This document shows, one piece after another, positions 6,040 to 51,300 of a stretch of 64,000 bases of DNA. Under the pieces are notes generated by a model. That model worked only from the letters and a program-made list of their open reading frames with translations, was not told the origin of the DNA and did no database searches. Made by a program: the position numbers and the translations under genes. The stretch's first letter is position 1. Every line of letters begins with the position of its first letter. This stretch comes from Alphaproteobacteria bacterium (lineage in GTDB: Bacteria > Pseudomonadota > Alphaproteobacteria > Rickettsiales > SXRF01), in contig JBDHUC010000006.1 of the NCBI GenBank assembly GCA_039808985.1, positions 20,261 to 84,260 of the forward strand, in the 5' to 3' direction.

Positions 6040-7560
<1,521 letters not shown>

Positions 7561-7567
7561 TAATGCT

Positions 7568-9064
7568 GTGCTTGCCGAACATTTAAAAACAGCACTTTTA
7601 AAGCCTCTAGCAAAAGAGCCGGATTATCTAACAGAAGATGGTACAGATTCATATAAATTTACACCTACTAGCAGTCTCGACCAGAAAGTGCAGCATGTCG
7701 CTGATTGGATAAGTGCGGCAATGGTAAATAATGAGCCTTGGCTTGCCGATCTCAATAAAAAAGGTAAACCTAAAGTATTGGTAGATATTGGAAGCCTCAA
7801 GCAGGCCGTTGATAAAGCCAATATTGATATGCGCAAAAACCGCGGTAATCCGGATTTTATTTTAGAAACTGCTAAAGATGTTCAGGAAGTAATGAAACTT
7901 GAGCATGGTTATCGTATAGTAAAATTACTAAGTCCACGCGCCCTTGATCGCGAAACTGCTATGCTCGGCCACTGTATAGGTGATGGTACTTACGATCATA
8001 AAGTAAAAAATCAGATAATTGCTTATTATTCATTGCGTGACCAGAATAACCAAGCCTGCGCTAGCATGGAAGTTATGGATGGTTTATTACTGCAATGTAA
8101 AGGTAAAAACGATAAGTCAGTGCTTAAAAAGCATGTTCCCTACATCAAAAAATTTGTGGAAAGGGAAGAATTATGGGTAAAGGAAAAGCCTGCGCTTTGC
8201 GGGCTAATAAGCGATAAGCAGGGAGTTACTCAGAATATTTATGATCTTCCCGAAAATACTCATTTTGTAGGAAATCTTAATCTTGAAGGTGTAGAAATTG
8301 AAAGCCTGCCTAAAGGGTTTCGCGTAGATGGAAATTTATTATGTGCCAATTCGGCGATAAAAGAATTGCCCGATAATTTGGTGGTTTCCAGACATGCGGT
8401 ATTTGACGGAAGTGAAATAGAAACCATTGGCGAAAATATTCATATCGGCAAGACTTTATCCTTAGCGCATTGTAAGAAACTTATTCATATTCCCGGCAGC
8501 ACAAAAATAGATGGGGACCTAGTCCTATCTGGGAATGCCGTGGAAACCATGGGTGATAATATAACCATAGGTGGAGATTTGCGTGCTGATCTCCGTTCGC
8601 ATTCGGCTCTTAAACATTTGCCAATGGGCATGAAAATAGGCGGTTCAGTGGAGTTGCCTTTTTGCAATTTGCTCTCTATTGGCGATAATGTGGCAATAGG
8701 CGAGCGCCTTAATCTTACTTGCAATCATAATCTTGCCCATATTGGCGCAGGCTTGAAAGTAGGCGGTTATATGGATGTTACCGCCAGCGCTATTTCCTCT
8801 TTGCCAGATAATTTGGAGATAGGGCATAATTTGTGGATTGAGCGCTGTAAGAACCTTCGCTCTTTGCCTAAAGGCCTTAATGTGGACGGAAACATATATA
8901 TGAAAGGGTCGGAGGTTGCGGAATTGCCGGATGATCTGATAGTTTCCGGCGCAGTTTTGGGGCCAGATAACACGCAAATGGAAAAGCCCAACGGTTCGGA
9001 TAAGCAATGGGGCGTGCAAATGGGATCATCTAAAGCCTCACAGGCTGCGGTGGCGCGCAGGTGA
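7568..9064 (+). CDS. PcfJ-like domain protein fused to ~10 LRR-like/beta-solenoid repeats
   Basis: 498 aa with a GTG start. The central region RETAMLGHCIGDGTYDHKV...YYSLRDQNNQACASMEV resembles the PcfJ family. The C-terminal half consists of ~20-23 aa repeats of the form LPxxLxVxGxLxL. Confidence 0.55.
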   Translation: MLAEHLKTALLKPLAKEPDYLTEDGTDSYKFTPTSSLDQKVQHVADWISAAMVNNEPWLADLNKKGKPKVLVDIGSLKQAVDKANIDMRKNRGNPDFILETAKDVQEVMKLEHGYRIVKLLSPRALDRETAMLGHCIGDGTYDHKVKNQIIAYYSLRDQNNQACASMEVMDGLLLQCKGKNDKSVLKKHVPYIKKFVEREELWVKEKPALCGLISDKQGVTQNIYDLPENTHFVGNLNLEGVEIESLPKGFRVDGNLLCANSAIKELPDNLVVSRHAVFDGSEIETIGENIHIGKTLSLAHCKKLIHIPGSTKIDGDLVLSGNAVETMGDNITIGGDLRADLRSHSALKHLPMGMKIGGSVELPFCNLLSIGDNVAIGERLNLTCNHNLAHIGAGLKVGGYMDVTASAISSLPDNLEIGHNLWIERCKNLRSLPKGLNVDGNIYMKGSEVAELPDDLIVSGAVLGPDNTQMEKPNGSDKQWGVQMGSSKASQAAVARR

Positions 9065-9095
9065 TTGGAACCACTCAGGTCTTGAGTATGATAGG

Positions 9096-9335
9096 TTACT
9101 GCTTATTGCCGAGTTTTGCTACCACACCAGCAGCACCGTCCGGGCGGTTAATGAACTCTATCCCGGCAGCTTCCAACGACTTACGAACCTTCATAAGCGT
9201 GCTTGTCCTGCTGTCTGCGCTTTGGGTCTCCAACTTTAATATGGCGGTCTCGGATAGCAAAGATTTATCGGCCAGGTCCTGTTGAGACCAACCCAAGAGC
9301 GCCCGTGCAGCGCGTATCTGCGAACCAGTAATCAT
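9096..9335 (-). CDS. XRE-family helix-turn-helix protein
   Basis: 79 aa starting at the internal ATG (MITGSQIRAARALLGWSQQDLADKS...), the canonical HTH_3 pattern. The upstream extension of the ORF is AT-rich junk. Confidence 0.75.
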   Translation of the reverse strand: MITGSQIRAARALLGWSQQDLADKSLLSETAILKLETQSADSRTSTLMKVRKSLEAAGIEFINRPDGAAGVVAKLGNKQ

Positions 9336-9521
9336 CCTGACCACAAATATTGAAACACTGGAATAATCAATAATGGAACTATAAAACCATTTTATTAAAT
9401 GGTAAAACCGTGCATATGAAATGACTAAAGGGGTAAAGCCTGTCATAAATATGGTCAGAATAATCATTTTTATCTTGACCAGTGAGACAGTCGCTCCTGA
9501 CATTCAAGAGGAGAAAAAAAC

Positions 9522-9731
9522 ATGCAATATAGCACCCGTATGCTTCGCCAATTGCGCTTTACTATCGGCAATAATATCCATTCATTACGTGTTAAACAGA
9601 AAATGCCACTGCATAAGCTTGCTAAACTTAGCGGCGTGCCGGAACTGCTGATTGACCATTATGAGCTGGGGAAAAATAGAATCAGCCTTGATGAATTATT
9701 CAAAATTTCCTGCGCACTGGAGGTGGAATAG
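9522..9731 (+). CDS. XRE-family helix-turn-helix protein
   Basis: 69 aa. GAGGAG Shine-Dalgarno 8 nt upstream. HTH pattern IGNNIHSLRVKQKMPLHKLAKLSGV. Divergent from the ORF at 9096-9335. Confidence 0.7.
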   Translation: MQYSTRMLRQLRFTIGNNIHSLRVKQKMPLHKLAKLSGVPELLIDHYELGKNRISLDELFKISCALEVE

Positions 9732-9851
9732 AAAAACTGGTTATATGATTGCATAAAACAAGTTAGCGGCAGTTAATTCCTGATTTTGTATAATCCACAG
9801 GTTGCAATTGGATAAAATTAACGCTAATTAGTCTAATTCTTTACAATATAT

Positions 9852-9927
9852 GCCGCTTTAGCTCAGTTGGTAGAGCACTTCATTCGTAATGAAGGGGTCG
9901 GGTGTTCGAGTCACCTAAGCGGCACCA
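9852..9927 (+). tRNA. tRNA-Thr (anticodon CGT)
   Basis: 76 nt cloverleaf read by eye: acceptor GCCGCTT/AAGCGGC, D arm GCTCAGTTGGTAGAGC, anticodon stem CTTCA/TGAAG with loop TTCGTAA, T arm GGGTGTTCGAGTCACC. CCA is encoded. Confidence 0.9.
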
Positions 9928-9974
9928 TGAAATTTATTGTTATTTTTCAATATGCTAGATTTTGTAGCCGATGC

Positions 9975-10001
9975 CTCGCGCCGTGTGCGCGAGTGTCGTT
10001 T
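9975..10001 (+). terminator. candidate intrinsic terminator after tRNA-Thr
   Basis: 7-bp GC-rich stem CTCGCGC/GCGCGAG with a 5-nt loop, followed by TGTCGTTT. Confidence 0.4.
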
Positions 10002-10111
10002 AAGGCGACTTCTAGAGATGCTTAAATACAGACGTTTTTCGATAAGATTTTATCTGTTTTCTCTACGGGCGATTCTGGCAGTGTCGTTTTGAAATGAAGA
10101 AATCTTACAAA

Positions 10112-10885
10112 TTAAGCGGCACCCTCAATATTTCTTATAAAGAAGTGCGGTTTTTGATCTGCTTTTTGCCGGTATAGCTGGGCTGGGCGCTTACCATCAT
10201 ACCGCATGTCATCAGTTTCTTCTAATATGTCCGTATTTAGTATTCTGCGGCGGAAAGACTTATGATCTATTTTCTTATCCAGGATGTTCTCATAAACTTT
10301 TTGCAATTCACCCAGAGTAAAATCTTTAGGCATTAGATAAACAGGCAAGGAGGTATATAAAACCTTGCTACGCAGCCTTTCTACACATTTTGCAAGTATA
10401 TCGGCATGGTCAAAGGCCAGCTTGTCTTTGACCTTTCCATTCGTAACCAGCGACCACTTGATATCGATGGCCCCTTTATCTGCCTGGAGTTTTACTTCAT
10501 GGCAGGGTATAAGCGCAAAATAAATGGTGGTGACCGACCAGCCACGCGGATCACGTGTTTTATTCCCTATCGTGCCATATTGCTCCAGATACGGAGTACG
10601 TACACCAGTTTTTTCTTCTAGTTTTCTCTTAGCGGTAGCTTCAATATCATAATCCATTTCAATATCGATAAATCCTCCGACCAGCGACCACATATCTTTG
10701 AACGGATGCTCGCCACGCTTGGCAGTCAGTACATGTAAATGATCATCAATGACGGTGAAGATTGCGGTATCTACCGATGTGCTGGCTCGCGCAAAAATGG
10801 ATGGATCATAATTCTTTAAGAATTCTTCTTCCGATTGGGTAGTATTTTTCACGTTAAACCCCAAGTAATTATAATTCTGCATCAA
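10112..10885 (-). CDS. nrtR: NrtR-like Nudix-related transcriptional regulator (Nudix fold plus C-terminal winged HTH)
   Basis: 257 aa. Degenerate Nudix box GGFIDIEMDYDIEATAKRKLEEKTGV. C-terminal FTLGELQKVYENILDKKIDHKSFRRRIL is typical of the NrtR wHTH. Overlaps the nadV-like gene by 17 nt. Confidence 0.75.
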   Translation of the reverse strand: MMQNYNYLGFNVKNTTQSEEEFLKNYDPSIFARASTSVDTAIFTVIDDHLHVLTAKRGEHPFKDMWSLVGGFIDIEMDYDIEATAKRKLEEKTGVRTPYLEQYGTIGNKTRDPRGWSVTTIYFALIPCHEVKLQADKGAIDIKWSLVTNGKVKDKLAFDHADILAKCVERLRSKVLYTSLPVYLMPKDFTLGELQKVYENILDKKIDHKSFRRRILNTDILEETDDMRYDGKRPAQLYRQKADQKPHFFIRNIEGAA

Positions 10886-12353
10886 TAGTTTTTCGTATTT
10901 CTGCTAAAGAAATGGGTTTCAGCAACTTACCATCAACAAAAACGGTTTCTAGTAACCCCTGATTTTCTTGCTCTTCTGTTTGCTTATCATGCAATACTAA
11001 AGCTTTACCTTCTTGCTCGATACGAAGCAATCCTCTCGCCGATTTTTTAGTGCCGGAATCGGTTTTTGGGGACTTGAATATGTCGCGGCGTTCTCCATTC
11101 ACCACGCCGCTGGTGGCCTTCATGGCAAAGCCGAAATTATCACGGGTTACATATTGATAGGTATAGGAGCCAACACCGAATACGACGTTGCCAGAGGCAA
11201 AACCCTTAGCTTCCAGATTTTTTAGTATCGTCTGCGCTCGTTCGAGTGTAATGGAGTCGCCGTAAATAAGGCCGATATGAGGATCGAGCATCTTATAGCC
11301 TTTGTCCGTTACCGTACCGCCGAAAACATCCCACAAACATTCTATCGCACCTTTATATTCCGGGCTGTCTTTTGGCGCTTCCAGGTCCCCCGCTACGATC
11401 TTAACCGGATCGCCGCTATCGGGGCGGATAACTAGTTTTCCTTCACGTTTCAATATTTCATTTTTCATTTCTACGGTATACTCCGTTACAACTTTCCAGA
11501 AATCCCATGTGTCAGAAACAATTGAAACGATACCGCTTGGATATAAATTGTTGATCAGTCTGCGAAATGTGGCAAGCTCTCCATCCGGCATACCCATGCA
11601 CATGACTGAATGTTCGGTAGCAGGCACTGAACAGCCCAGCATTTCTTTTTCGGCATCGGCGTAGTAATAATCTTCAGCCAGATCAATGCCAGGAACGGTA
11701 TCGGTACCCCAGAAAGAAGTTAAGTGCGCGGCACCGCTTATTGCCGAATCCTGAAGGCTCGACATGCCACGGAATGAAAAGTCGTGTGCCTGGAACTGTA
11801 CGAATTCTTTGGGGGTGCCGGTTTTTTCCGCGTATTGCATCAAAAGTTTCTTATACTCAAAAGCGGTGGTTGCCGAGGTTACCGGTTTCCACAGATAACA
11901 GGAAATCACGCTTTCGATGTAATTGGTAAGCCAGAAAAAATCTGGGTGGGTGTTGACGATAGTGAGTACCGGCACGCCGATTGGCACACGCGTTCCCTCA
12001 GAAAGTGCTTTGATTTTTATAGGTAGATATCCGAGGTCGTGTAATGCTGCAATATGCGATACATCAATGGAATCCTTACCCAGGGAAAAATCCATACGCC
12101 TTTTATAAGCAGCAACCACTTTGTTTTTATCCTTGTTAAAGAATTGCTCATTCCAGGAATTGATAAGAAAATCCTGGATAAAATATTGCAAACCAAAGAA
12201 TACTATTTTGTTATCATAATTATTCTTTAGCACTTTGGCCAGGCTGGCACTGCGTGGGGTAAAGTTCGCATATACCTCGGTGGTTCCTTCCGGATATTGG
12301 CGGCGGTGGTCGGTTTTATAAAAATCTATGGCTGTTAGTGGATTCGCACGCAT
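10869..12353 (-). CDS. nadV: nicotinamide phosphoribosyltransferase family protein (NadV/NAMPT-like)
   Basis: 494 aa. N-terminus NPLTAIDFYKTDHRRQYP and overall length match NAMPT/NadV. Confidence 0.85.
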   Translation of the reverse strand: MRANPLTAIDFYKTDHRRQYPEGTTEVYANFTPRSASLAKVLKNNYDNKIVFFGLQYFIQDFLINSWNEQFFNKDKNKVVAAYKRRMDFSLGKDSIDVSHIAALHDLGYLPIKIKALSEGTRVPIGVPVLTIVNTHPDFFWLTNYIESVISCYLWKPVTSATTAFEYKKLLMQYAEKTGTPKEFVQFQAHDFSFRGMSSLQDSAISGAAHLTSFWGTDTVPGIDLAEDYYYADAEKEMLGCSVPATEHSVMCMGMPDGELATFRRLINNLYPSGIVSIVSDTWDFWKVVTEYTVEMKNEILKREGKLVIRPDSGDPVKIVAGDLEAPKDSPEYKGAIECLWDVFGGTVTDKGYKMLDPHIGLIYGDSITLERAQTILKNLEAKGFASGNVVFGVGSYTYQYVTRDNFGFAMKATSGVVNGERRDIFKSPKTDSGTKKSARGLLRIEQEGKALVLHDKQTEEQENQGLLETVFVDGKLLKPISLAEIRKTIDAEL

Positions 12354-12366
12354 GGGAATTCTCCTT

Positions 12367-13170
12367 TTATTTGCTGAATATGGTAAGAGTTGGGTTGTTT
12401 ATTTCAGGGTCTTTAAGCATGGTATAATAACAATAAATATGCTTAAAATGGGGTGATATCTCGCTAAGCCCCTGCGAGAAGATACCGTGCGTCACATAAA
12501 GATAAATATCACCTGCGCCGCCACCCTTTAATTCTTTCGCCAGTTCAATAAATGTCCTGCCGCCATCGCATATATCATCCACGATCAGCAAATCACGGCC
12601 ATTTACATCTGCATGTATTGCTGTAGCAGTGATATTGCCGGTCATGGTGTCGCGGGTTTTGCTGGAACAGAATACTTCTGCTGAAAGTAGCTTAGCCGCC
12701 ATGCGCGTTTTCTTTTCTGCCCCGGCATCTGGCGAAACCAGAGCTAGCTTTTTATCAGCTACCATTTTTGCCAGATGGTTACTTACGATCTCCGCCAGTG
12801 GAATAATCTTGCAGTTATTAAGCAGGGCAGGGGTTACATCGGAATGCGGATCATAGATTGTAACGCTGGCACAATGTAAGCTGTTTATGATATCCGCCAT
12901 TACCTTTACACTTAGAGATTCACCCTCATTACATACCCTGTCCTGCCGCGCGTATGGAAAGTAAGGGATGGTCAGGTTTATAACAGTGGCTGGATTTACC
13001 CGGCGTATGGCATCAACCGCAAGCATCAGGCACATGATATCATCGGAACTGCTTAAGTGAGCGGTAATGCTGGTTTTATCGCTGATATCCGCAATATTTA
13101 TTTTTATATGGCATTCCCCACCGGAAAATTGGAATGTTTCTAATTTTTTACCGTTTACAATAATTGGCAT
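12367..13170 (-). CDS. short ribose-phosphate pyrophosphokinase-like protein (Prs fold; possible ADPR diphosphokinase)
   Basis: 267 aa, versus ~315 aa for housekeeping Prs. Motifs IPYFPYARQDR and the PRPP-binding loop LLIVDDICDGGRT. It lacks the C-terminal part of canonical Prs. Confidence 0.7.
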   Translation of the reverse strand: MPIIVNGKKLETFQFSGGECHIKINIADISDKTSITAHLSSSDDIMCLMLAVDAIRRVNPATVINLTIPYFPYARQDRVCNEGESLSVKVMADIINSLHCASVTIYDPHSDVTPALLNNCKIIPLAEIVSNHLAKMVADKKLALVSPDAGAEKKTRMAAKLLSAEVFCSSKTRDTMTGNITATAIHADVNGRDLLIVDDICDGGRTFIELAKELKGGGAGDIYLYVTHGIFSQGLSEISPHFKHIYCYYTMLKDPEINNPTLTIFSK

Positions 13171-13180
13171 CGCTCGCTCC

Positions 13181-14107
13181 TTATATTACCAAATAACCTT
13201 TTTTATCCGCCACACTGACCGTTGCCATAGTACCGGAATTGAACTCAATGCAATCCGATTCCACACCATCGCTGAAGATAACCCCGTTCTCAGCCATCAT
13301 TGAAGTTACCTTCATATTATTATTTTTCTTTATGTTGCCGAATACTAGTTCAGTTCCTGTTACATTACTGGGAAATGGCTCCCTTACGCTATAACAAAGA
13401 TGGTCAGCATCCCAGTCGAAGCCTTTGTATCGCTTGGCAGCGTGCTTCTGCCCGGCTATTCTATTGGCACCCGTCAGGATACTGCTTAGCCAGCCAGTTG
13501 AGCCAAGACCTGTGGAAATAATGATGCCACTGGAGGATTGTTGCTCTTTTCTATTATCCACCTCCAGCATATAGCGAGCTGAAGTATGGCTTTTGGGGCC
13601 AATAAAAATATCATTCACCCCATAAAGCATATGGCCATTATTCGTTTCAATCTTTGCAAATGTTATTTCTTTTCTTTTTCTTTTGTTATTATACAGTTCC
13701 ATAACGATTGCAGCAGCATCAGGGGCGGTAAACGGTAGCAATACACCATCCCAGCGCACCGGATCCGGGTTAATCGCTACCACTGCGTGATTGTCAAGAT
13801 ATTTAAGGGTGTTTGCAACCAGTCCATCCTGGCCGATAACTACGATCATATCATTCTTTGCAAAAATGAAATTTGGCACATAGGAGCGATCAATAACCTG
13901 CACCCGGGCGATCTTCTGTAAATCAGCCTCAACCTTTGCAACTGCCCGTTTATAGATATGGTCTTCTTGCTGGTAATCAGAAAAATCCATCCCAAGATTC
14001 TCTACGTAAAACTTGGCCTGATCGATAGTATTGAATTTGACGATGACCTCATCAAGCCGAGTTTTACGGGTAATTATTATGATCTTATTCTCAGTAAGCC
14101 TATGCAT
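13181..14107 (-). CDS. NAD-kinase/diacylglycerol-kinase-fold protein
   Basis: 308 aa. GQDG in place of the NADK GGDG motif, NDIFIG, and SSGIIISTGLGSTGW (compare NADK ...STPTGSTAY). Overlaps the SPFH gene by 8 nt. Confidence 0.6.
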   Translation of the reverse strand: MHRLTENKIIIITRKTRLDEVIVKFNTIDQAKFYVENLGMDFSDYQQEDHIYKRAVAKVEADLQKIARVQVIDRSYVPNFIFAKNDMIVVIGQDGLVANTLKYLDNHAVVAINPDPVRWDGVLLPFTAPDAAAIVMELYNNKRKRKEITFAKIETNNGHMLYGVNDIFIGPKSHTSARYMLEVDNRKEQQSSSGIIISTGLGSTGWLSSILTGANRIAGQKHAAKRYKGFDWDADHLCYSVREPFPSNVTGTELVFGNIKKNNNMKVTSMMAENGVIFSDGVESDCIEFNSGTMATVSVADKKGYLVI

Positions 14108-15062
14108 GGCTGGCCTGCATCAGCTGACCGAGAAGGTCAGGGGTTATATTAAGCTGACCGATCTTATTCGCATTTTCTGAGAGATCACGGAATGATGCAG
14201 CGATGAGTTGAGCTGGGTCCATCCCTACCATAGCTAGGGCCTGAATGGTTTTAGAATCGATCCGGCTTATTGCAGCCATGCTGGTTTCTATAGCATAGGC
14301 TTTCGCATCGGCTTCTTTTTTGCTATTTTCTACGACTATCGCTACCAGCTCTTCATTTTTCTTCTCAAGAATGATTTTACCGCTTATGTCAGCCTCCCGC
14401 ATCTCACGGTTTTTTTCTTCTACCACCCGTTCAGTGAGCAATTCATTTTCCTTAATGGCACGTTCTTGCTCAATGGCTGAATTCCGGCGCTGATAAAGCG
14501 CATCGTCAGCTTGCTTAAGCAAAGATTCACGGGTTTCGGCCTCCAATGCCCGGCTTGTTTCTTTATTGGCTTTTACCCCGAGGATAGAAAAACCTACTAT
14601 CTCAATACCCAGCTTTTTCAATGAGCTTGAGTTCATCAGTTCCGAATACACCACCGCGGTTAGTTTTTCCCCACAGGAGATGGCTTCTTTCAAATTTAAT
14701 TTTTCCAACTCTTTACGCAGTGATACCTGAACCAGGTTTACAATGCGTTTAGGAAGTTTTTTAGGATCATCAGAGATATATTCACCACGCACATTCAGGC
14801 TGTAGTTAAGCATCTGCGTAATAGCAGCCACATCAACGATCTTATAGGTTACCTGACCCTGTACGGTAACTTCCTGGAAATCTCCAGTCACCTCGCTGAA
14901 CATGAATGGTACATCCTCACTGCCCATAGGTACAGAAACAAGGGAGGTGGATGGTGCATGATAGAATAGTGAAAGACCAAAACCTTCTTTGATAGCTTTC
15001 CCATTCCGAGATTTGATCAGGTATGTTGATGGATCAACTTTAACAAATTTTACGCCGAACAT
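14100..15062 (-). CDS. SPFH/band-7 domain protein
   Basis: 320 aa. N-terminal SPFH-like beta/alpha region followed by a long Glu/Lys-rich coiled coil. First gene of the operon. Confidence 0.65.
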   Translation of the reverse strand: MFGVKFVKVDPSTYLIKSRNGKAIKEGFGLSLFYHAPSTSLVSVPMGSEDVPFMFSEVTGDFQEVTVQGQVTYKIVDVAAITQMLNYSLNVRGEYISDDPKKLPKRIVNLVQVSLRKELEKLNLKEAISCGEKLTAVVYSELMNSSSLKKLGIEIVGFSILGVKANKETSRALEAETRESLLKQADDALYQRRNSAIEQERAIKENELLTERVVEEKNREMREADISGKIILEKKNEELVAIVVENSKKEADAKAYAIETSMAAISRIDSKTIQALAMVGMDPAQLIAASFRDLSENANKIGQLNITPDLLGQLMQASHA

Positions 15063-15116
15063 TATTAATCTCCCATGTAGTTATTATTATGTTAAATGGC
15101 TCACAGCCACAAATGA

Positions 15117-15137
15117 ATAATGGCACAAGGCCATTAT
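15117..15137. promoter_or_regulatory. 21-bp perfect palindrome upstream of the SPFH-NADK-prs-nadV-nrtR operon (candidate operator)
   Basis: ATAATGGC-acaag-GCCATTAT, 55-75 nt upstream of the SPFH start codon. A second small palindrome, TGGCT-cac-AGCCA, lies at about 15097-15109. Confidence 0.4.
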
Positions 15138-15229
15138 CATGTCAACTAAAATGCTAAATTTTATTAAAATATAAATATATTGTTAATATGCAGCATGTTA
15201 TTCGTGTTGTGATTTTGCTAATACTGCGA

Positions 15230-16327
15230 TTAATGATTAATTGCCGTATAAATCGGATAATCTTTTAATTCTTCCAGATATTCTTCAAGGCTGACCTTTG
15301 CCACGCAGGGATAAGCGCCTGGGGCAGGCAGTATTCCGGTAGCGATTTTCTTAGCAAGCACTATAGCTGGGATAGTAGGGATATAAGGCCCATAGCCATC
15401 TTTTGCGATTATAAACCATTCAATTTTATGTGGCGCGCCACCTGGCACAGTACCGGATATAACCATATGCATGCCACCATCGGAACTGCCGAAACGGTCA
15501 AACCAGTTGCTGGCGGAAAGAAGTGCTGTCGCATATTTCGGTAAGTTCAATGGGACACCTATCCGCACCAGCCATGATATTGCCCATAGGCCCAAATGTA
15601 ATGGCGCAAGCTGTAATCCGGCAGAAAATTGAATTGATTTTATGCCATAGGCGGCTGGTAACAAGTCGAGATCAGGAATATCGCAATTCGCCATCCAGCG
15701 TTTGCCCAGGCCAGGATATTCCTGCCTATAAATATTCTGCCAACCATAGGCACAGGAATTTCCTGCAAAGGGGGCAAGTGGTTTGCCTACATAAGTGAGA
15801 ATACCTTTAGTGGTAGCCAGTCCGCGCTCGGCTTTCTGGCCTGGGCTGATGCCGAAGCGTAGTGCATGAATGCTGGTAAACTCATGTTTGAAATGTTCTA
15901 GCACGGCGGAGGAAAGCCCCGGTACAGTGCTGGCCCCACTGATGACACTTACCCCATTAGCCTTTGCAGCCTCGTCTAGTTTTGTGATTCCGGTGACAAA
16001 TGTCCGGCCATCGGCGAGGTCAATATAATGAATACCGCCTGCAATGCAGGTTTCTGCCACGTGATAGTCAGAAGTTTGAAAAGGACCGCATGTATTGACT
16101 ACTGCGCAGGGCTGTATGATGCTGAGTTGTTTGGCGAGATCTTGCTTCACATCGAATATGGCAGCCTGAGCTGGCGATCCCAATTCTGACACCAGAATTT
16201 CAGCCTTTATGCGATTACGCCCAACAATAACGATCGGTATATGCGCCTTCACCAAAGCCTGCGCTATGCGCTTGCCGAAATTTCCATAACCACCAAGAAT
16301 GAGCACTTTACGGTTCAAGCACAACAT
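15230..16327 (-). CDS. saccharopine dehydrogenase-like NAD(P)-binding protein
   Basis: 365 aa. Rossmann motif VLILGGYGNFGKRIA. The family commonly pairs with DUF4166 proteins. Confidence 0.7.
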   Translation of the reverse strand: MLCLNRKVLILGGYGNFGKRIAQALVKAHIPIVIVGRNRIKAEILVSELGSPAQAAIFDVKQDLAKQLSIIQPCAVVNTCGPFQTSDYHVAETCIAGGIHYIDLADGRTFVTGITKLDEAAKANGVSVISGASTVPGLSSAVLEHFKHEFTSIHALRFGISPGQKAERGLATTKGILTYVGKPLAPFAGNSCAYGWQNIYRQEYPGLGKRWMANCDIPDLDLLPAAYGIKSIQFSAGLQLAPLHLGLWAISWLVRIGVPLNLPKYATALLSASNWFDRFGSSDGGMHMVISGTVPGGAPHKIEWFIIAKDGYGPYIPTIPAIVLAKKIATGILPAPGAYPCVAKVSLEEYLEELKDYPIYTAINH

Positions 16328-17336
16328 CCTTTACAGTGAAATCACCAGAATAGGCGTAAACTTCACCAAACCATGGGTGGCGAATATCCATATACATACG
16401 AAAATTGCTATCGCCAGTGGCTTCTTCTTCGGCATATCCTTTGCCAAACAGCCAATGGAACGGAAAGTGTATATTCAAGCCAAACAACCGCCATACATAA
16501 CCGCGATGAGTAAGTGTTACCTTGTTGTTCGTAAATTGATAGGCCGCACGCCAGCCAATACCCAGGCTCATATACTCGATGACCTCATTACCTCCCACCG
16601 GCATCATGCGCGAGAGGAAATGAAAAGGCGCTTTGCCTGGGAAGCGGAATTCACGATCAAAGCGGAAAACCCGTGAATCTGCTTCGCTGCGGAAGGTGAC
16701 AGTTGTTGGAACATCTTGGCCCTGATATGGCACCAACAAGCCCGACCATTTCAACAGTGGGGCAAAAAACCGCATCAGGCGTGATGCGCGTACTTCCATA
16801 AGGCCCTCTACTACTACCACATCATTGGTATAGGGCCGGTTCGCATAATGTTGGTGCATCACTGCTGGCATAGTCTGCCACGCTTCACCAAAAATAGGTT
16901 GGAAAATAGGAGATTTATTGCCATTAGCCAGATTGCCAAGCTTAGGTTTGCCTTTTATATACATGAGAGCATTGCGTGTGCCACGCATTGCGGGATATAG
17001 CAGCTTTGCTATGTGCGGGGAGCTAAATAGCAAGGCATTCATGCGGTTAAACCAACCAATATTGCTTCCGAGCAGAGCCATGATAACAAGAGCATCAGCG
17101 CCATGGTAGTGACGTTCACCAAATTTTATGACCATGCCTTCATCAAGATCGTATCCTAGTTCAGTTGCCTCGCGTACTAGTGGCTGATCCTTGCCTTCGC
17201 GCGCATTGATTAGGTGAAGCGAGCCGACTGCCTGGCGGATGCGCAGTGCATGAGCAGCGGTGGTGCAAATAGGGCAATCACCATCATATATGAAGTGCGC
17301 GTCGCCTTTTAATTTTTCTATCGCATCAGGTTCCAT
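16308..17336 (-). CDS. DCC1-like thiol-disulfide oxidoreductase (DUF393) fused to DUF4166
   Basis: 342 aa. N-terminal YDGDCPICTTAAHAL (DCC motif). The C-terminal ~200 aa are DUF4166-like. Overlaps the downstream gene by 20 nt. Confidence 0.6.
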   Translation of the reverse strand: MEPDAIEKLKGDAHFIYDGDCPICTTAAHALRIRQAVGSLHLINAREGKDQPLVREATELGYDLDEGMVIKFGERHYHGADALVIMALLGSNIGWFNRMNALLFSSPHIAKLLYPAMRGTRNALMYIKGKPKLGNLANGNKSPIFQPIFGEAWQTMPAVMHQHYANRPYTNDVVVVEGLMEVRASRLMRFFAPLLKWSGLLVPYQGQDVPTTVTFRSEADSRVFRFDREFRFPGKAPFHFLSRMMPVGGNEVIEYMSLGIGWRAAYQFTNNKVTLTHRGYVWRLFGLNIHFPFHWLFGKGYAEEEATGDSNFRMYMDIRHPWFGEVYAYSGDFTVKDVVLEP

Positions 17337-17353
17337 AATGCTAGTTATAGCGC

Positions 17354-17821
17354 ATGGATTATCTTTTTCTCAAACTTATTCACATCATTAGCGCAACAAT
17401 CCTGTTTGGCACCGGCATTGGCAGCGCTTTCTATATGTTCATGGCGAACCGGCGGAAGGATATTGCCGGTATATATTTTGCTACTCGTTATGTCGTGATA
17501 GCGGATTGGATATTTACCACACCGAGCGTTATCGTGCAGCTTGCCAGCGGCATAGCGCTGGCCCATGAGTTAGGATTACCGCTGACTGAAGGATGGGTGT
17601 TCTGGGCGCTGATTCTTTACTCACTTGCCGGTGTTTGCTGGGTGCCAGTTGTCTGGCTACAGATTAAAATGCGCGATATGGCAAAGATAGCTATAGAAGC
17701 GGGGGATGCTTTACCTGAGCGCTACTGGCGGCTTGATCGCTGGTGGATTATTTTAGGCTCTCTGGCTTTCCCAGCAATACTTGCCATAATAGGTTTAATG
17801 GTGATGAAGCCGGGTTTTTAA
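17354..17821 (+). CDS. DUF2269-family integral membrane protein
   Basis: 155 aa with four predicted TM helices. The N-terminus LKLIHIISATILFGTGIGSAFYMF is typical of the family. Confidence 0.55.
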   Translation: MDYLFLKLIHIISATILFGTGIGSAFYMFMANRRKDIAGIYFATRYVVIADWIFTTPSVIVQLASGIALAHELGLPLTEGWVFWALILYSLAGVCWVPVVWLQIKMRDMAKIAIEAGDALPERYWRLDRWWIILGSLAFPAILAIIGLMVMKPGF

Positions 17822-17860: not shown

Positions 17861-17936
17861 TGGTGGGCCGTACTGGGGTCGAACCAGTGACCTATTGATT
17901 AAGAGTCAACCGCTCTACCAACTGAGCTAACGGCCC
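17861..17936 (-). tRNA. tRNA-Lys (anticodon CTT)
   Basis: The reverse complement GGGCCGTTAGCTCAGTTGGTAGAGCGGTTGACTCTTAATCAATAGGTCACTGGTTCGACCCCAGTACGGCCCACCA folds as a cloverleaf. Anticodon loop CTCTTAA. CCA is encoded. Confidence 0.9.
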
Positions 17937-48321: not shown

Positions 48322-51300
48322 CTATTTCATTGCCGCTTCGAGTGGCTGTTCAAGCCTGGGCATTTCACCGCCTAGCGCCGCGCCATAATTATCTTCGTTC
48401 ATCCAGTCTACCTTTTCCATTTTACGCAGGATAATAAATTCATCGCGGTTGCTGCCTACAGTGCCGTAATAATTGAAATCATAGGCAAGCTGGGCATATC
48501 CGCCGATCATATGAGTGGGCTTTAATACCGTGCGGGTGACGGAATTGTGGATGCCGCCGCGCAGGCCGGTGATTTCGCTGCCTGGCACGTTCACGATTTT
48601 TTCCTGCGCATGGTACATTAGTATCATGCCTTCGGGTACACGCTGGCTCACCACCGCACGCGCAGTGAGCGCGCCATTGCTGTTATAAGCCTCAACCCAA
48701 TCGTTATCAACCACAGCGATTTTCTTCGCGTCAATTTCCGAAATCCACACGATCGGCCCGCCACGCGACAGGGTGAGCATCAGCAGATTATCGGTATAGG
48801 TAGAGTGAATGCCCCATTTCTGGTGCGGGGTAATGAAGTTCAGCAGCACCTGCTTGCGGTCTTTGCCAAATTTCTCGATCACATTTCCTGTCGCTTTCAA
48901 ATCCACCGGCGGTTTGTATACGCACAGCGATTCGCCAAATGCGCGCATCCATGCATGGTCCTGGTAGAGCTGCTGGCGGCCTGTGAGCGTGCGCCATGGC
49001 ACCAGCTCATGCACGTTTACGTATCCGGCATTATAGCTTACATGCTCGGATTCAATGCCACTCCATGTTGGCGAGGAAATAATCTTGCGCGGCTGCGCCT
49101 GAATATCGCGGTAGCGGATTTTTTCATCCTCGCGGGTTTCCGCCAGATGCAGGTGATTACGCCCGGTATTCTCACCCAGCGCTTTCCATGCCTTGCATGC
49201 CACATGGCCGTTGGTTTCCGGCGCCAGCGTCAAGATGACTTCCGCCGCATCAATAGCTGATTCAATGCGTGGCAGGCCTTTGGAAACGCCTTCCTCGGTA
49301 ACGGTGTAGTTGAGTTCGCCCAGCAGCTTCAATTCATCTTCCGTATTCCAGCTTATGCCTTTGCCGCCATTGCCGAGTTTGGAAAGCAGCGGCCCCAGCG
49401 AGGTGAATTTCTTGTAGGTGTTGGGGTAGTCCCGCTCCACCAGAAACACATTGGGCATGGTTTTACCGGGAACCGGCTCGCACTCGCCTTTTTTCCAGTC
49501 TTTCACGTCAAAGGCCTGCGCGATTTCATTCGCCGTATCATGCTTTATAGGGTTCATCACCACATCCTGCTCAACGCCCAGATGCCCTACGCATAGCTCC
49601 GAGAATTTTTTGGCGATGCCTTTGTAAATATCCCAATCGCTGCGCGATTCCCACGCCGGATCAACCGCCGCTGAAAGCGGGTGGATGAACGGGTGCATGT
49701 CTGAGGTATTGAGGTCGTTCTTCTCGTACCATGTGGCGGTGGGCAGAACGATGTCGGAATACATGCAGGTGGTGGACATGCGGAAATCCAGCGTCACCAG
49801 CAGGTCGAGCTTACCTTCGGGTGCTTCGTCATGCCACACGACATCCTTAGGCTTGGTGCCACCAAATTGGCCGAGGTCAACGCCCTGCACGCCGTGGCTG
49901 GTGCCGAGCAGGTGCTTGAGGAAATATTCGTGGCCCTTACCGCTGGAGCCAAGGATATTCGAGCGCCAGACGAACATGTTGCGCGGCCAGTTCTGCGGCG
50001 CATCCGGGTCATTGCAGGATAGCTTCAACTCTCCTGATTTAAGCCCTTCCGCCACCGCTTCGCCGACATTGCGCCCCGACTTTTTGATAGCCGCGCCAAC
50101 CTCCAGCGGGTTGCGCTCAAGCTGTGGCGCTGATGGTAGCCAGCCCATGCGCTCGGAGCGCACGTTGCAGTCGATAAATGATAGCTCTTTCCACTCCTGG
50201 TTATCTTCCAGCGGCGAGAGGATTTCTTCCATCTTCAGCCGCTCGTAGCGCCACTGGTCGGTGTGGGCGTAGAAGAACGAGGTGGAGTTCTGCTGGCGGG
50301 GCGGGCGGTTCCAGTCGGTGGCGAAGGCCAGCGGCACCCAGCCGGTTTGCGGGCGCAGTTTTTCCTGCCCGACATAATGGCTCCAGCCACCGCCGGATTT
50401 GCCGATACAGCCGCACATCACGAGCATGTTTATGATGGCGCGGTAATTCATGTCCATGTGGTACCAGTGGTTCATCGCCGCACCAATAATAACCATGGAT
50501 TTACCGTGGGTCTTATGCGCGTTCTCGGCAAACTGGCGAGCGACGTTAATTACATGCTCGCGTTTCACGCCTGTAATTTTTTCCTGCCATGCGGGAGTAT
50601 AAGGAACATCGTCATCAAATGAACTGGCCACGTTGCCGCCACCGAATCCGCGATCCACGCCGTAATTGGCGATGAAAAGGTCATAAACCGTTGCCACATA
50701 CGCATCGCCTTCCTTCAGTTCCAGCTTCAGGATGGGTACATTGCGGTTCAGCACGCTGGCATGATCGGTGCTATTAAAATGCTCATGCGGGGTATTGCCG
50801 AAATAGGGGAAAGACACCGATCCAATCTCGTGCTTACTGTGTTCCTTAAGCGTCAGCAGTGGCCAGAGTTCTTCGCCGGTCACTTCATCCTTCGGCTCCA
50901 GGTTCCACTTGCCTTTCTGCCCCCAGCGTGAACCGATGGTGCCGTTGGGCACGCGGACTTTCTCTTCATGTCCGCACATAATAACAGGCTTCCAGTCGGG
51001 ATTGTTTCCGGCGCCAAGATTATCTGCAAAATCCGAGGCGCGGATCATGCGATTGGGCACGTAGGCACCATCCTTTTTAACCATCAGCACCAGGAATGGC
51101 ATGTCAGTATACTGGCGGCAGTAATCATCGAAATAATCGCTCTTGCCTGCCACATGCCATTCTTTGAGGATCACATGGCCCATTGCCATGGCAAGCGCGG
51201 CGTCAGTTCCCTGCTTAGGGTGCATCCAGAGGTCGGCTAGCTTTGCCACTTCCGAATAGTCGGGGGTGACGGCTACGGTTTTTGCGCCCTTGTAACGCAC

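Follow-up and report, generated by a model that had tools for sequence, protein, structure and literature searches.

A candidate NARP1 gene pair joined to an SPFH-kinase module in a putative NrtR-repressed operon of an alphaproteobacterial chromosome

The five-gene operon and its described relatives

In the NARP1 pathway, Adps converts ADP-ribose to ADP-ribose pyrophosphate (ADPR-PP) and Namat adds nicotinamide to form nicotinamide adenine dinucleotide (NAD+) (bioRxiv 10.1101/2024.02.11.579819). The pathway counters NAD-depleting defence (bioRxiv 10.1101/2024.02.11.579819, PMC12774641) and is also found on some bacterial chromosomes (bioRxiv 10.1101/2024.02.11.579819); NARP1 of Paenibacillus is active (PMC12774641). 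A similar gene set, prs-nadV-nrtR, was described by Rodionov in 2008 for Shewanella, Acinetobacter, and Chromobacterium (PMC2330246). NARP1, its bacterial occurrence, NrtR, and the prs-nadV-nrtR operon are already known, and our literature search found no paper linking NrtR to NARP1. Here we analyze an operon of five genes (10112-15062, minus strand) in which these elements meet two further genes. It is located in a stretch of 64,000 nucleotides (nt) of contig JBDHUC010000006.1, called the window in the following, from a metagenome-assembled genome (MAG) obtained from activated sludge. The window is chromosomal; its other products comprise LigA, PrmA, an aminopeptidase, and NarGH/NarK.

In the order of transcription, the operon encodes an SPFH/Band-7 protein of 320 amino acids (aa) (14100-15062), a NAD-kinase-fold protein of 308 aa (13181-14107), a short Prs homologue of 267 aa that is a candidate ADP-ribose diphosphokinase of the Adps type (12367-13170), a NAMPT homologue of 494 aa that is a candidate nicotinamide ADP-ribose transferase of the Namat type (10869-12353), and a NrtR-type repressor of 256 to 257 aa composed of a Nudix and a winged helix-turn-helix domain (10112-10885). 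The first two genes overlap by 8 nt (ATGCATAG), the next junctions are gaps of 10 and 13 nt, and the Namat and NrtR genes overlap by 17 nt if counted from TTG or by 14 nt if counted from the ATG at 10882. Shine-Dalgarno sequences were found 5′ of the SPFH, Adps, and Namat genes. A preliminary description of this DNA had proposed that the five tightly packed genes form one operon, which is borne out by the coordinates of the open reading frames (ORFs), by the spacing of −17 to +13 nt, and by a single upstream promoter; the five genes are probably a single transcription unit. The boundary at the SPFH end had been placed at 15137 and has to be corrected, as the SPFH gene starts at 15062 and the region 15063-15145 is taken up by the promoter with its two operators and by the 5′ leader. 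The operon had also been described as lacking a gene for nicotinamide mononucleotide (NMN) adenylyltransferase, and none is present among the five genes, the rest of the window and the genome not having been searched.

We consider it fairly probable that the operon is one NrtR-repressed unit in which a NARP1 pair and an SPFH-kinase module were brought together by the fusion of two operon types. In the proposed mechanism, NrtR, the product of the last gene, would repress its own operon via two operators over the promoter. Splitting of NAD by NADases, ADP-ribosyltransferases, sirtuins, or Tpt1-type enzymes would raise the level of ADP-ribose, upon which NrtR, if it behaves like characterized members of its family, would leave the DNA and allow expression. 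Judged from the close homology to tested enzymes, Adps would then move pyrophosphate from ATP to ADP-ribose, and Namat would convert the resulting ADPR-PP and nicotinamide directly to NAD+, a route for which NMN adenylyltransferase would not be needed. The least certain step, suggested by fold and gene context, would be the conversion of NAD(H) to NADP(H) by a NADK2-type kinase. On the same grounds, an SPFH assembly might serve as a scaffold or regulator of this kinase, and the operon would restore both pyridine-nucleotide pools.

With NARP1 of phages, the operon shares the order Adps-Namat, the lack of NMN adenylyltransferase, the adenine-clamp motif of Namat, and the catalytic-loop and HS motifs of Adps, whereas its chromosomal location, the ADP-ribose-type repressor, the two extra upstream genes, and a longer SCL loop in Namat set it apart. 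With the prs-nadV-nrtR operons, it shares the last three genes, the regulator family, and the operator type, with tandem sites as in Shewanella; it differs from them by the SPFH and kinase genes added upstream, and the 2008 operons were read as salvage dependent on phosphoribosyl pyrophosphate (PRPP) (PMC2330246). The 2008 study posed the puzzle of why a second Prs is tied to NadV under the control of an ADP-ribose-sensing repressor. The enzymes of the window and, by extension, those of the 2008 operons appear to carry Namat and Adps signatures. As an answer we suggest that prs-nadV encodes NARP1, the substrate of which would at the same time be the inducer. Recent papers call the role of bacterial NARP1 open, and the operon would place NARP1 in a self-regulated loop leading from ADP-ribose to NAD.

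Signatures of the enzyme pair and the NrtR regulator

The NadV-like protein contains the Pfam domains NAMPT_N and NAPRTase. In a sequence search of the PDB, it scored 590 bits with 9W5X/9W5W, the structures of SPbetaL1 Namat with nicotinamide and with NAD+ (PMC12774641), versus 247 bits with human NAMPT and 224 bits with the Xanthomonas-type chain 7YQO. Its identity to SPbetaL1 Namat is 56% (tblastn), and it matched phrog_448 with 686 bits. The signature that separates Namat from Nampt is the adenine-clamp SCH motif GSXΦXΦXΦTRD with an aromatic residue at X (PMC12774641). This motif is matched exactly by GSYTYQYVTRD, which aligns with GSFTYQYNTRD of SPbetaL1, whereas true Nampt proteins encoded next to SPFH-kinase pairs (locus L076) have GMGGELLQKINRD in its place. 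In the alignment with SPbetaL1, the conserved stretches hdfsfrg, gtdtvp, irpdsgdp, and patehsvm surround the core residues F189, D215, and R306 and the catalytic His. By homology, the NadV-like protein is a candidate member of the Namat clade, and the comparison with NadV and Namat proposed in the preliminary description came out clearly, since the protein is far nearer to the crystallized phage Namat than to any Nampt and has the clamp motif.

The Prs-like protein shows the Pfam domains Pribosyltran_N and Pribosyl_synth and is shorter than Escherichia coli Prs, ~20 N-terminal and ~45 C-terminal residues being gone. It matched phrog_619 over the whole profile with 285 bits versus 153 bits for TIGR01251, the general Prs family. 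Its best phage relatives (47 to 51% identity) are annotated as Prs genes, and in the one that was opened (L081) the Prs gene lies directly before a NAMPT-type gene with the Namat motif. The HS motif DPHSDVT and the catalytic loop KxR[DN]xxTGxI are common to the window protein and to the Adps proteins of SPbetaL1 and FADO, whereas E. coli Prs has DLHAEQI and DKRRPRANVSQV, respectively. The stretch following ARQDR is acidic in the Prs-like protein and in the tested Adps proteins but basic in E. coli Prs, and the absence of both Prs termini is likewise common to the Prs-like protein and the tested Adps proteins. In the alignment with SPbetaL1 Adps, SSKTRD and GHKQRN have their Lys residues in register; the catalytic Lys of SPbetaL1 Adps is K162, equivalent to K197 of Bacillus subtilis Prs (bioRxiv 10.1101/2024.02.11.579819). 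Among the 120 closest homologues listed, the HS motif was present in 109 and the K-loop motif in 119, and DLHA was found in none. The gene lies directly upstream of the Namat gene, and Namat adjoins 97% of the Adps-clade genes (bioRxiv 10.1101/2024.02.11.579819). Searching the PDB sequences with the Prs-like protein revealed no solved Adps and nothing closer than ordinary Prs. From its sequence features, the Prs-like protein is a candidate Adps-type enzyme.

The NrtR-like protein consists of an N-terminal NUDIX domain (40 bits) and a C-terminal winged helix, NrtR_WHD (PF21906, 83 bits), and matched the structure of Shewanella oneidensis NrtR (3GZ5) over its full length with 193 bits. Its Nudix box is degenerate (RKLEEKTGV); read against the known Nudix consensus, two catalytic Glu residues are replaced, as would be expected of a sensor and not of a hydrolase. 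ADP-ribose releases S. oneidensis NrtR from prs-nadV DNA, relief of DNA binding by ADP-ribose having been demonstrated for the NrtR proteins of S. oneidensis and Synechocystis only, and the S. oneidensis protein responds to 2′-phospho-ADP-ribose, too (PMC2330246). By analogy, the operon is probably switched on by ADP-ribose.

NrtR operators are 21-bp palindromes, and two tandem sites precede Shewanella prs-nadV (Rodionov 2008, PMC2330246). Upstream of the SPFH gene we found a sigma-70-type promoter on the minus strand (15117-15145) with TTGACA at 15145-15140, a 17-nt spacer, CATTAT at 15122-15117, and a TG before the −10 region. It scored 10 of 12, and an identical TTGACA is present at the equivalent place in the related loci L088, L089, L090, L085, and L102. 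As promoter-like sites in this region are no commoner than expected by chance, it is this conservation that supports the promoter. Operator 1, a perfect 21-bp palindrome (ATAATGGCCTTGTGCCATTAT, 15117-15137, minus strand), occupies the promoter spacer and covers the −10 region, and operator 2, an imperfect palindrome (TTTGTGGCTGTGAGCCATTTA, 15093-15113, minus strand), follows immediately downstream of the −10 region. The pattern RTGGC-N5-GCCAY occurs three times in the 64-kb window versus 0.45 matches expected, and two of the three are the operators; the third match (51175-51189) falls within a narG-type ORF and was attributed to chance. Sites of the operator 1 type are located upstream of the SPFH or Adps gene in L088, L089, L090, L094 to L097, L102, L103, and L099 from Acinetobacter, and the tandem second site is kept in L088, L089, L090, L085, and L102, though the surrounding sequence differs. 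The operator core in the window is GG-N7-CC, compared to GT-N7-AC as the commonest NrtR core, and the prs-nadV-nrtR genes of the Acinetobacter locus are preceded by the same operator type as in the window (ATAGTGGC-N5-GCCACTAT). The structure match to 3GZ5, together with the two conserved palindromes over the promoter, upholds the earlier proposal that the last gene encodes a NrtR-type regulator.

The reading of 2008 offers another explanation for the enzyme pair, namely, classical salvage in which the short Prs would supply PRPP, NadV would form NMN, and the last step to NAD would fall to an NMN adenylyltransferase (NadM, NadR, or NadD) with its gene at another place. This is how prs-nadV-nrtR was annotated (Rodionov 2008, PMC2330246), and both window proteins match the Prs and NAMPT families, with a score of 605 bits for NF006629, which is above the cutoff. 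We regard this explanation as improbable, since the NadV-like protein possesses the Namat-specific adenine clamp, for which the true Nampt neighbours of the SPFH pair have GMGGELLQKINRD, and is much nearer to crystallized Namat than to any Nampt, while the catalytic loop of the Prs-like protein is of the Adps type and its Prs termini are missing. In addition, SPbetaL1 Adps was active on ADP-ribose and gave no product in a Prs-type control with PRPP and ATP (bioRxiv 10.1101/2024.02.11.579819), and ADP-ribose, the inducer of NrtR, is the substrate of NARP1.

Some observations nevertheless weigh against a NARP1 pair under NrtR control. Namat retains PRPP-dependent synthesis of NMN from nicotinamide in vitro at about half the rate of human Nampt, and classical salvage is therefore possible as a side activity. 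The SCL loop, which is variable and supplies a stacking residue from its third position by Arg, Lys, or Tyr (Arg40 in SPbetaL1; PMC12774641), exceeds that of SPbetaL1 by 6 residues, and a Ser aligns with Arg40, with Lys and Tyr residues nearby. The Prs-like protein is 29% identical to SPbetaL1 Adps and likewise 29% identical to E. coli Prs, the one canonical Prs included in the direct alignment. The attempt to separate Adps from Prs by pairwise identity thus failed, and for the Adps assignment we relied on shared motifs, the match to the phage-family profile, and synteny. The NrtR-like protein reached 264 bits with NF050029, the NrtR equivalog, versus a cutoff of 400; by sequence, it is a member of the NrtR family outside this narrow equivalog. 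Finally, the sequence of the operon was absent from three small metatranscriptomes of a related study. Concerning the preliminary description, in the comparison of the Prs-like protein with Prs and Adps, motifs, catalytic loop, and phrog_619 point to Adps, and identity does not distinguish between the two. The NARP1 composition proposed there, that is, Adps and Namat without NMN adenylyltransferase, gained support from the Namat match with its clamp motif and from the grouping of the Adps candidate with phage-type proteins.

The SPFH-kinase pair

An AlphaFold2 (AF2) model of the kinase had a pLDDT of 84, and the top 50 Foldseek matches in the PDB were all NAD kinases, with human NADK2 in first place (TM 0.71 to 0.74). 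A profile of the kinase family compared to the PDB gave an E value of 4e-12 for NADK2 and of 3e-3 or worse for other NAD kinases. Kinase and NADK2 have in common the ND motif, the N(P/T)DPxRxxG loop, SSG, and TGxGSxxW (TGLGSTGW in the window). The Trp of the latter motif, which in NADK2 stacks on the nicotinamide ring (PMC9245612), is invariant in the kinase family. Directly after TGxGSxxW, residues 207 to 235 of the kinase form a variable insert of ~25 residues that was modeled with low confidence. In NADK2, an insert occupies the same position and is reported to be unique to the mitochondrial kinases of animals (PMC9245612); this correspondence hints that the bacterial kinase family is related to the NADK2 lineage. 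Human NADK2 (7R4J, 7N29; PMC9245612) is thus the best match by fold and profile and resembles the kinase in the motifs and the long variable insert. The two proteins differ in that their identity is only ~18% and that the window kinase is bacterial, has GQDG in place of GGDG, and belongs to a family always paired with an SPFH gene. Judged from fold and gene context, its most likely reaction is the phosphorylation of NAD(H) to NADP(H).

Opposed to this assignment are the sequence searches, in which the kinase matched no Pfam family at E ≤ 0.01 and matched the NADK families of NCBIfam weakly, with 26.5 bits at best versus a cutoff of 260. The GQDG motif noted in the preliminary description is indeed present and was invariant in the 120 of 120 homologues listed, GGDG occurring in none; the catalytic Asp is kept. 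The substrate could be ADP-ribose, nicotinic acid adenine dinucleotide, or another compound. It is possible, though rather doubtful in our view, that the protein is not an NAD kinase but acts on ADP-ribose or a derivative, forming, e.g., 2′-phospho-ADP-ribose, or on a lipid together with a raft-like SPFH protein, and is merely co-regulated with the other genes. Besides the invariant GQDG and the missing match to Pfam NAD_kinase, this explanation would account for the recurrent neighbours ADP-ribosylglycohydrolase, Macro, and Tpt1, which all release ADP-ribose or derivatives, and for the response of S. oneidensis NrtR to 2′-phospho-ADP-ribose; in addition, one NCBI record labels a homologue as a diacylglycerol-kinase-domain protein. 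It is at variance with the 50 structural matches, which include no lipid kinase or phosphofructokinase, with the invariance of the nicotinamide-stacking Trp, with an SPFH protein that has no membrane segment, and with Nampt, PncB, or NARP1 neighbours, which point to the NAD pool.

The SPFH protein matched Pfam Band_7 with 58 bits. Its AF2 model (pLDDT 75) shows an SPFH domain followed by a single helix of ~100 residues (167 to 266), and the Foldseek matches comprised HflK/C, stomatin, QmcA, erlin, prohibitin, flotillin, and the major vault protein. No membrane segment was detected, the maximum Kyte-Doolittle hydropathy over 19 residues being 1.2, and this maximum was below 1.6 in 107 of the 120 SPFH homologues listed. 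In the monomer model, the protein resembles the cage-forming SPFH proteins (HflK/C, QmcA, stomatin, flotillin, prohibitin, erlin) and the vault protein by an SPFH domain followed by a very long helix, but a transmembrane or hairpin anchor is lacking, as are NfeD and FtsH partners. In the vault, SPFH domains that bind NAD+, ADP, and ADP-ribose are part of a soluble cage with the NAD-consuming PARP4 inside (PMC12280208). We take this likeness as a suggestive analogy only. An extended version, which we consider quite unlikely, would be a soluble vault-like SPFH cage that binds NAD or ADP-ribose nucleotides and holds or gates the kinase, so that ADP-ribose would induce a partition between NAD and NADP, the kinase family being a sister or the source of mitochondrial NADK2.

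Scanning species-representative genomes with the kinase profile revealed at least 596 confirmed places, 80 of which were examined. These 80 broadly sampled loci and the nine nearest relatives, which are from metagenomes and include the window's own contig (L082), made up a neighbourhood set of 89 loci. The SPFH gene lies directly upstream of the kinase gene in 88 of the 89, across phyla; the exception is located at a contig end. Near the pair, NrtR was encoded in 36 loci, ADP-ribosylglycohydrolase in 7, Macro in 4, and Tpt1, PncB, and Nampt in 3 each, and no further recurrent neighbour was found among the 89 loci. Adps together with a motif-bearing Namat stood beside the pair in nine loci, i.e., in seven of the nine nearest relatives (L082 included) but in only 2 of the 80 broadly sampled loci. 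Conservation of the SPFH and kinase genes as neighbours, on which the preliminary description had made its interpretation depend, thus holds for the pair itself, whereas their proximity to Adps and Namat is a feature of the nearest relatives. As Adps-Namat adjoins the pair in only 2 of the 80, we interpret SPFH-kinase as a separate module of the NrtR regulon that was fused to NARP1 rather than being a part of it. A phage origin of the kinase was discarded, as tblastn of 50,697 phage records gave no match.

The pair may have been listed before. Rodionov 2008 gives "nrtR<#>nrtX-nrtY" for Proteus, the main text of that paper being without an identity of nrtX and nrtY (PMC2330246). In Providencia, which like Proteus belongs to the Morganellaceae, we found the arrangement NUDIX<>SPFH-kinase, and the kinase is present in Proteus and Streptomyces records. 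Because the Providencia layout equals the Proteus listing and both Proteus and Streptomyces hold the kinase, we infer that SPFH-kinase most likely corresponds to nrtX-nrtY as listed in 2008, the SPFH gene being the probable nrtX and the kinase gene the probable nrtY. The pair of the window differs from that listing in being fused to NARP1 instead of standing alone. Our literature search revealed no paper on a pair of SPFH and NAD kinase proteins. We are thus dealing with an SPFH and a NADK2-like kinase that are widespread, unstudied, probably in the same regulon as NARP1, and welded to it in one lineage; a construct with the five genes makes the function of the pair directly testable.

Two further arrangements were observed for the pair. 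In six loci of Firmicutes, from a Clostridium MAG and Paenibacillus (L013, L016, L023, L030, L034, and L042), a canonical 21-bp NrtR palindrome with a GT-N7-AC core (e.g., ATAATGTCATATTGACATTAT; TTAATGTCATATTGACATTAT in L034) is located 40 to 105 nt upstream of the SPFH gene, and no nrtR gene is present within 8 kb, which suggests control in trans. In a Planctomycetota MAG (L063, 3020-8912) and a Verrucomicrobiaceae MAG (L068, 187-6420), the pair ends a same-strand array that encodes NrtR, Tpt1/KptA, and ADP-ribosylglycohydrolase and, in L068, Macro too; all array enzymes release ADP-ribose or derivatives.

Probable fusion of two operons, possible mobility, and surroundings

SPFH-kinase-NrtR occurs alone in L085 and L090, where the kinases are 69 to 74% identical to that of the window and the operons sit among housekeeping genes, e.g., purD, xseA, and lon. 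Adps-Namat-NrtR occurs alone in L102, L103, and the Acinetobacter locus L099. The five-gene form is present in the window, L088, L094, L095, L096, and L097 and also in L089, where it is cut by the contig end; these make up at least seven unrelated contexts, with different flanks every time. Promoter and operators are the same in all three forms. The NrtR proteins of these forms share 61 to 75% identity with each other, except for the Acinetobacter NrtR with 45 to 49%. Judged from these sequences, the window operon appears to be a concatenation of SPFH-kinase-NrtR and Adps-Namat-NrtR, and the fused cassette appears to move between genomes as a unit. One five-gene copy belongs to an Arcobacter MAG, and the others are on metagenome-derived contigs. 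In L095, two ORFs of 255 and 219 aa take the place of an intact Namat gene in the cassette (8828-10363), owing to a frameshift or to decay.

With the same chemistry, the operon might have a conflict function as cargo of mobile elements that protects the element or its host from NAD-depleting immunity or toxins such as SIR2, TIR, or RES. In L097, tRNA-Ser is followed by an integrase gene, the cassette, a DUF3987 primase-like gene, Toprim, and AlpA, as in an integrative island, and in L089 the cassette adjoins integrase and Prim-Pol genes. Together with the changing flanks, the Arcobacter copy besides those on other metagenome contigs, and the role of NARP1 against NAD-depleting defence, these locations would suit such a cargo, as would the position of the window cassette, which abuts tRNA-Thr with IS110, PcfJ-like, and helix-turn-helix (HTH) genes beyond. 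The location of the nearest SPFH-kinase-NrtR operons among housekeeping genes and the absence of the kinase from the phage records searched speak against it, and a repressor released by ADP-ribose would suit homeostasis just as well. PADLOC was blank for SPFH and kinase, and next to the operon we noticed no gene for an NADase defence, most of the window being unannotated. On balance we see a conflict function as a minority possibility. When all five proteins were compared with the defence-system models of PADLOC, no meaningful match was obtained.

Two groups of records with parts of the operon deserve mention. The contig of L099 (CAKLQF020000015.1), filed as "Acinetobacter phage MD-2021a," contains genes for an ABC transporter, an AraC regulator, a sulfite exporter, and a methionine-synthase-like protein around prs-nadV-nrtR. 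As this contig looks chromosomal, its 64% "phage" match to Namat is probably bacterial. On plasmid pALWED1.1 of Acinetobacter lwoffii (L093, 4115-8862), a nrtR-type Nudix gene and a full-length NADK-like gene lie beside tetR(H)/tet(H); an SPFH gene is not given in the PLSDB table, but an SPFH-sized gap is present. Further plasmid matches (H90 to H99), on small plasmids of Actinobacillus, Mannheimia, Psychrobacter, and Wohlfahrtiimonas, cover the C-terminal 80 to 140 aa of the kinase only. It looks as if a tet(H) element once captured part of the nrtR/kinase module.

The region is flanked by tRNA-Thr (CGT; 9852-9927, plus strand), which is convergent with the operon end and is regarded as a boundary marker only, and by tRNA-Lys (17861-17936, minus strand), both as had been reported before. 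The final 11 nt of tRNA-Thr (TAAGCGGCACC, 9916-9926) are repeated exactly at 10113-10123, i.e., 197 nt downstream, where they overlap the NrtR stop codon; including the flanks, 14 of 16 positions are identical. The repeat may be an att remnant or due to chance; we dismissed it as evidence, as it is too short to build on, and no integrase was seen among the annotated genes of the window. To the left of tRNA-Thr, the region 6381-9503 encodes an IS110-family transposase, a 498-aa weakly PcfJ-like protein with internal repeats, and a small HTH protein; this small patch of mobile appearance separates housekeeping genes from the tRNA. The region from the operon to tRNA-Lys (15230-17821) contains a saccharopine-dehydrogenase-like gene, a DCC1-like/DUF4166 fusion, and a gene for a DUF2269 membrane protein. 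Because L088, an 81% relative, likewise has DCC1-like and DUF4166 genes beside its cassette, they may represent the native neighbourhood.

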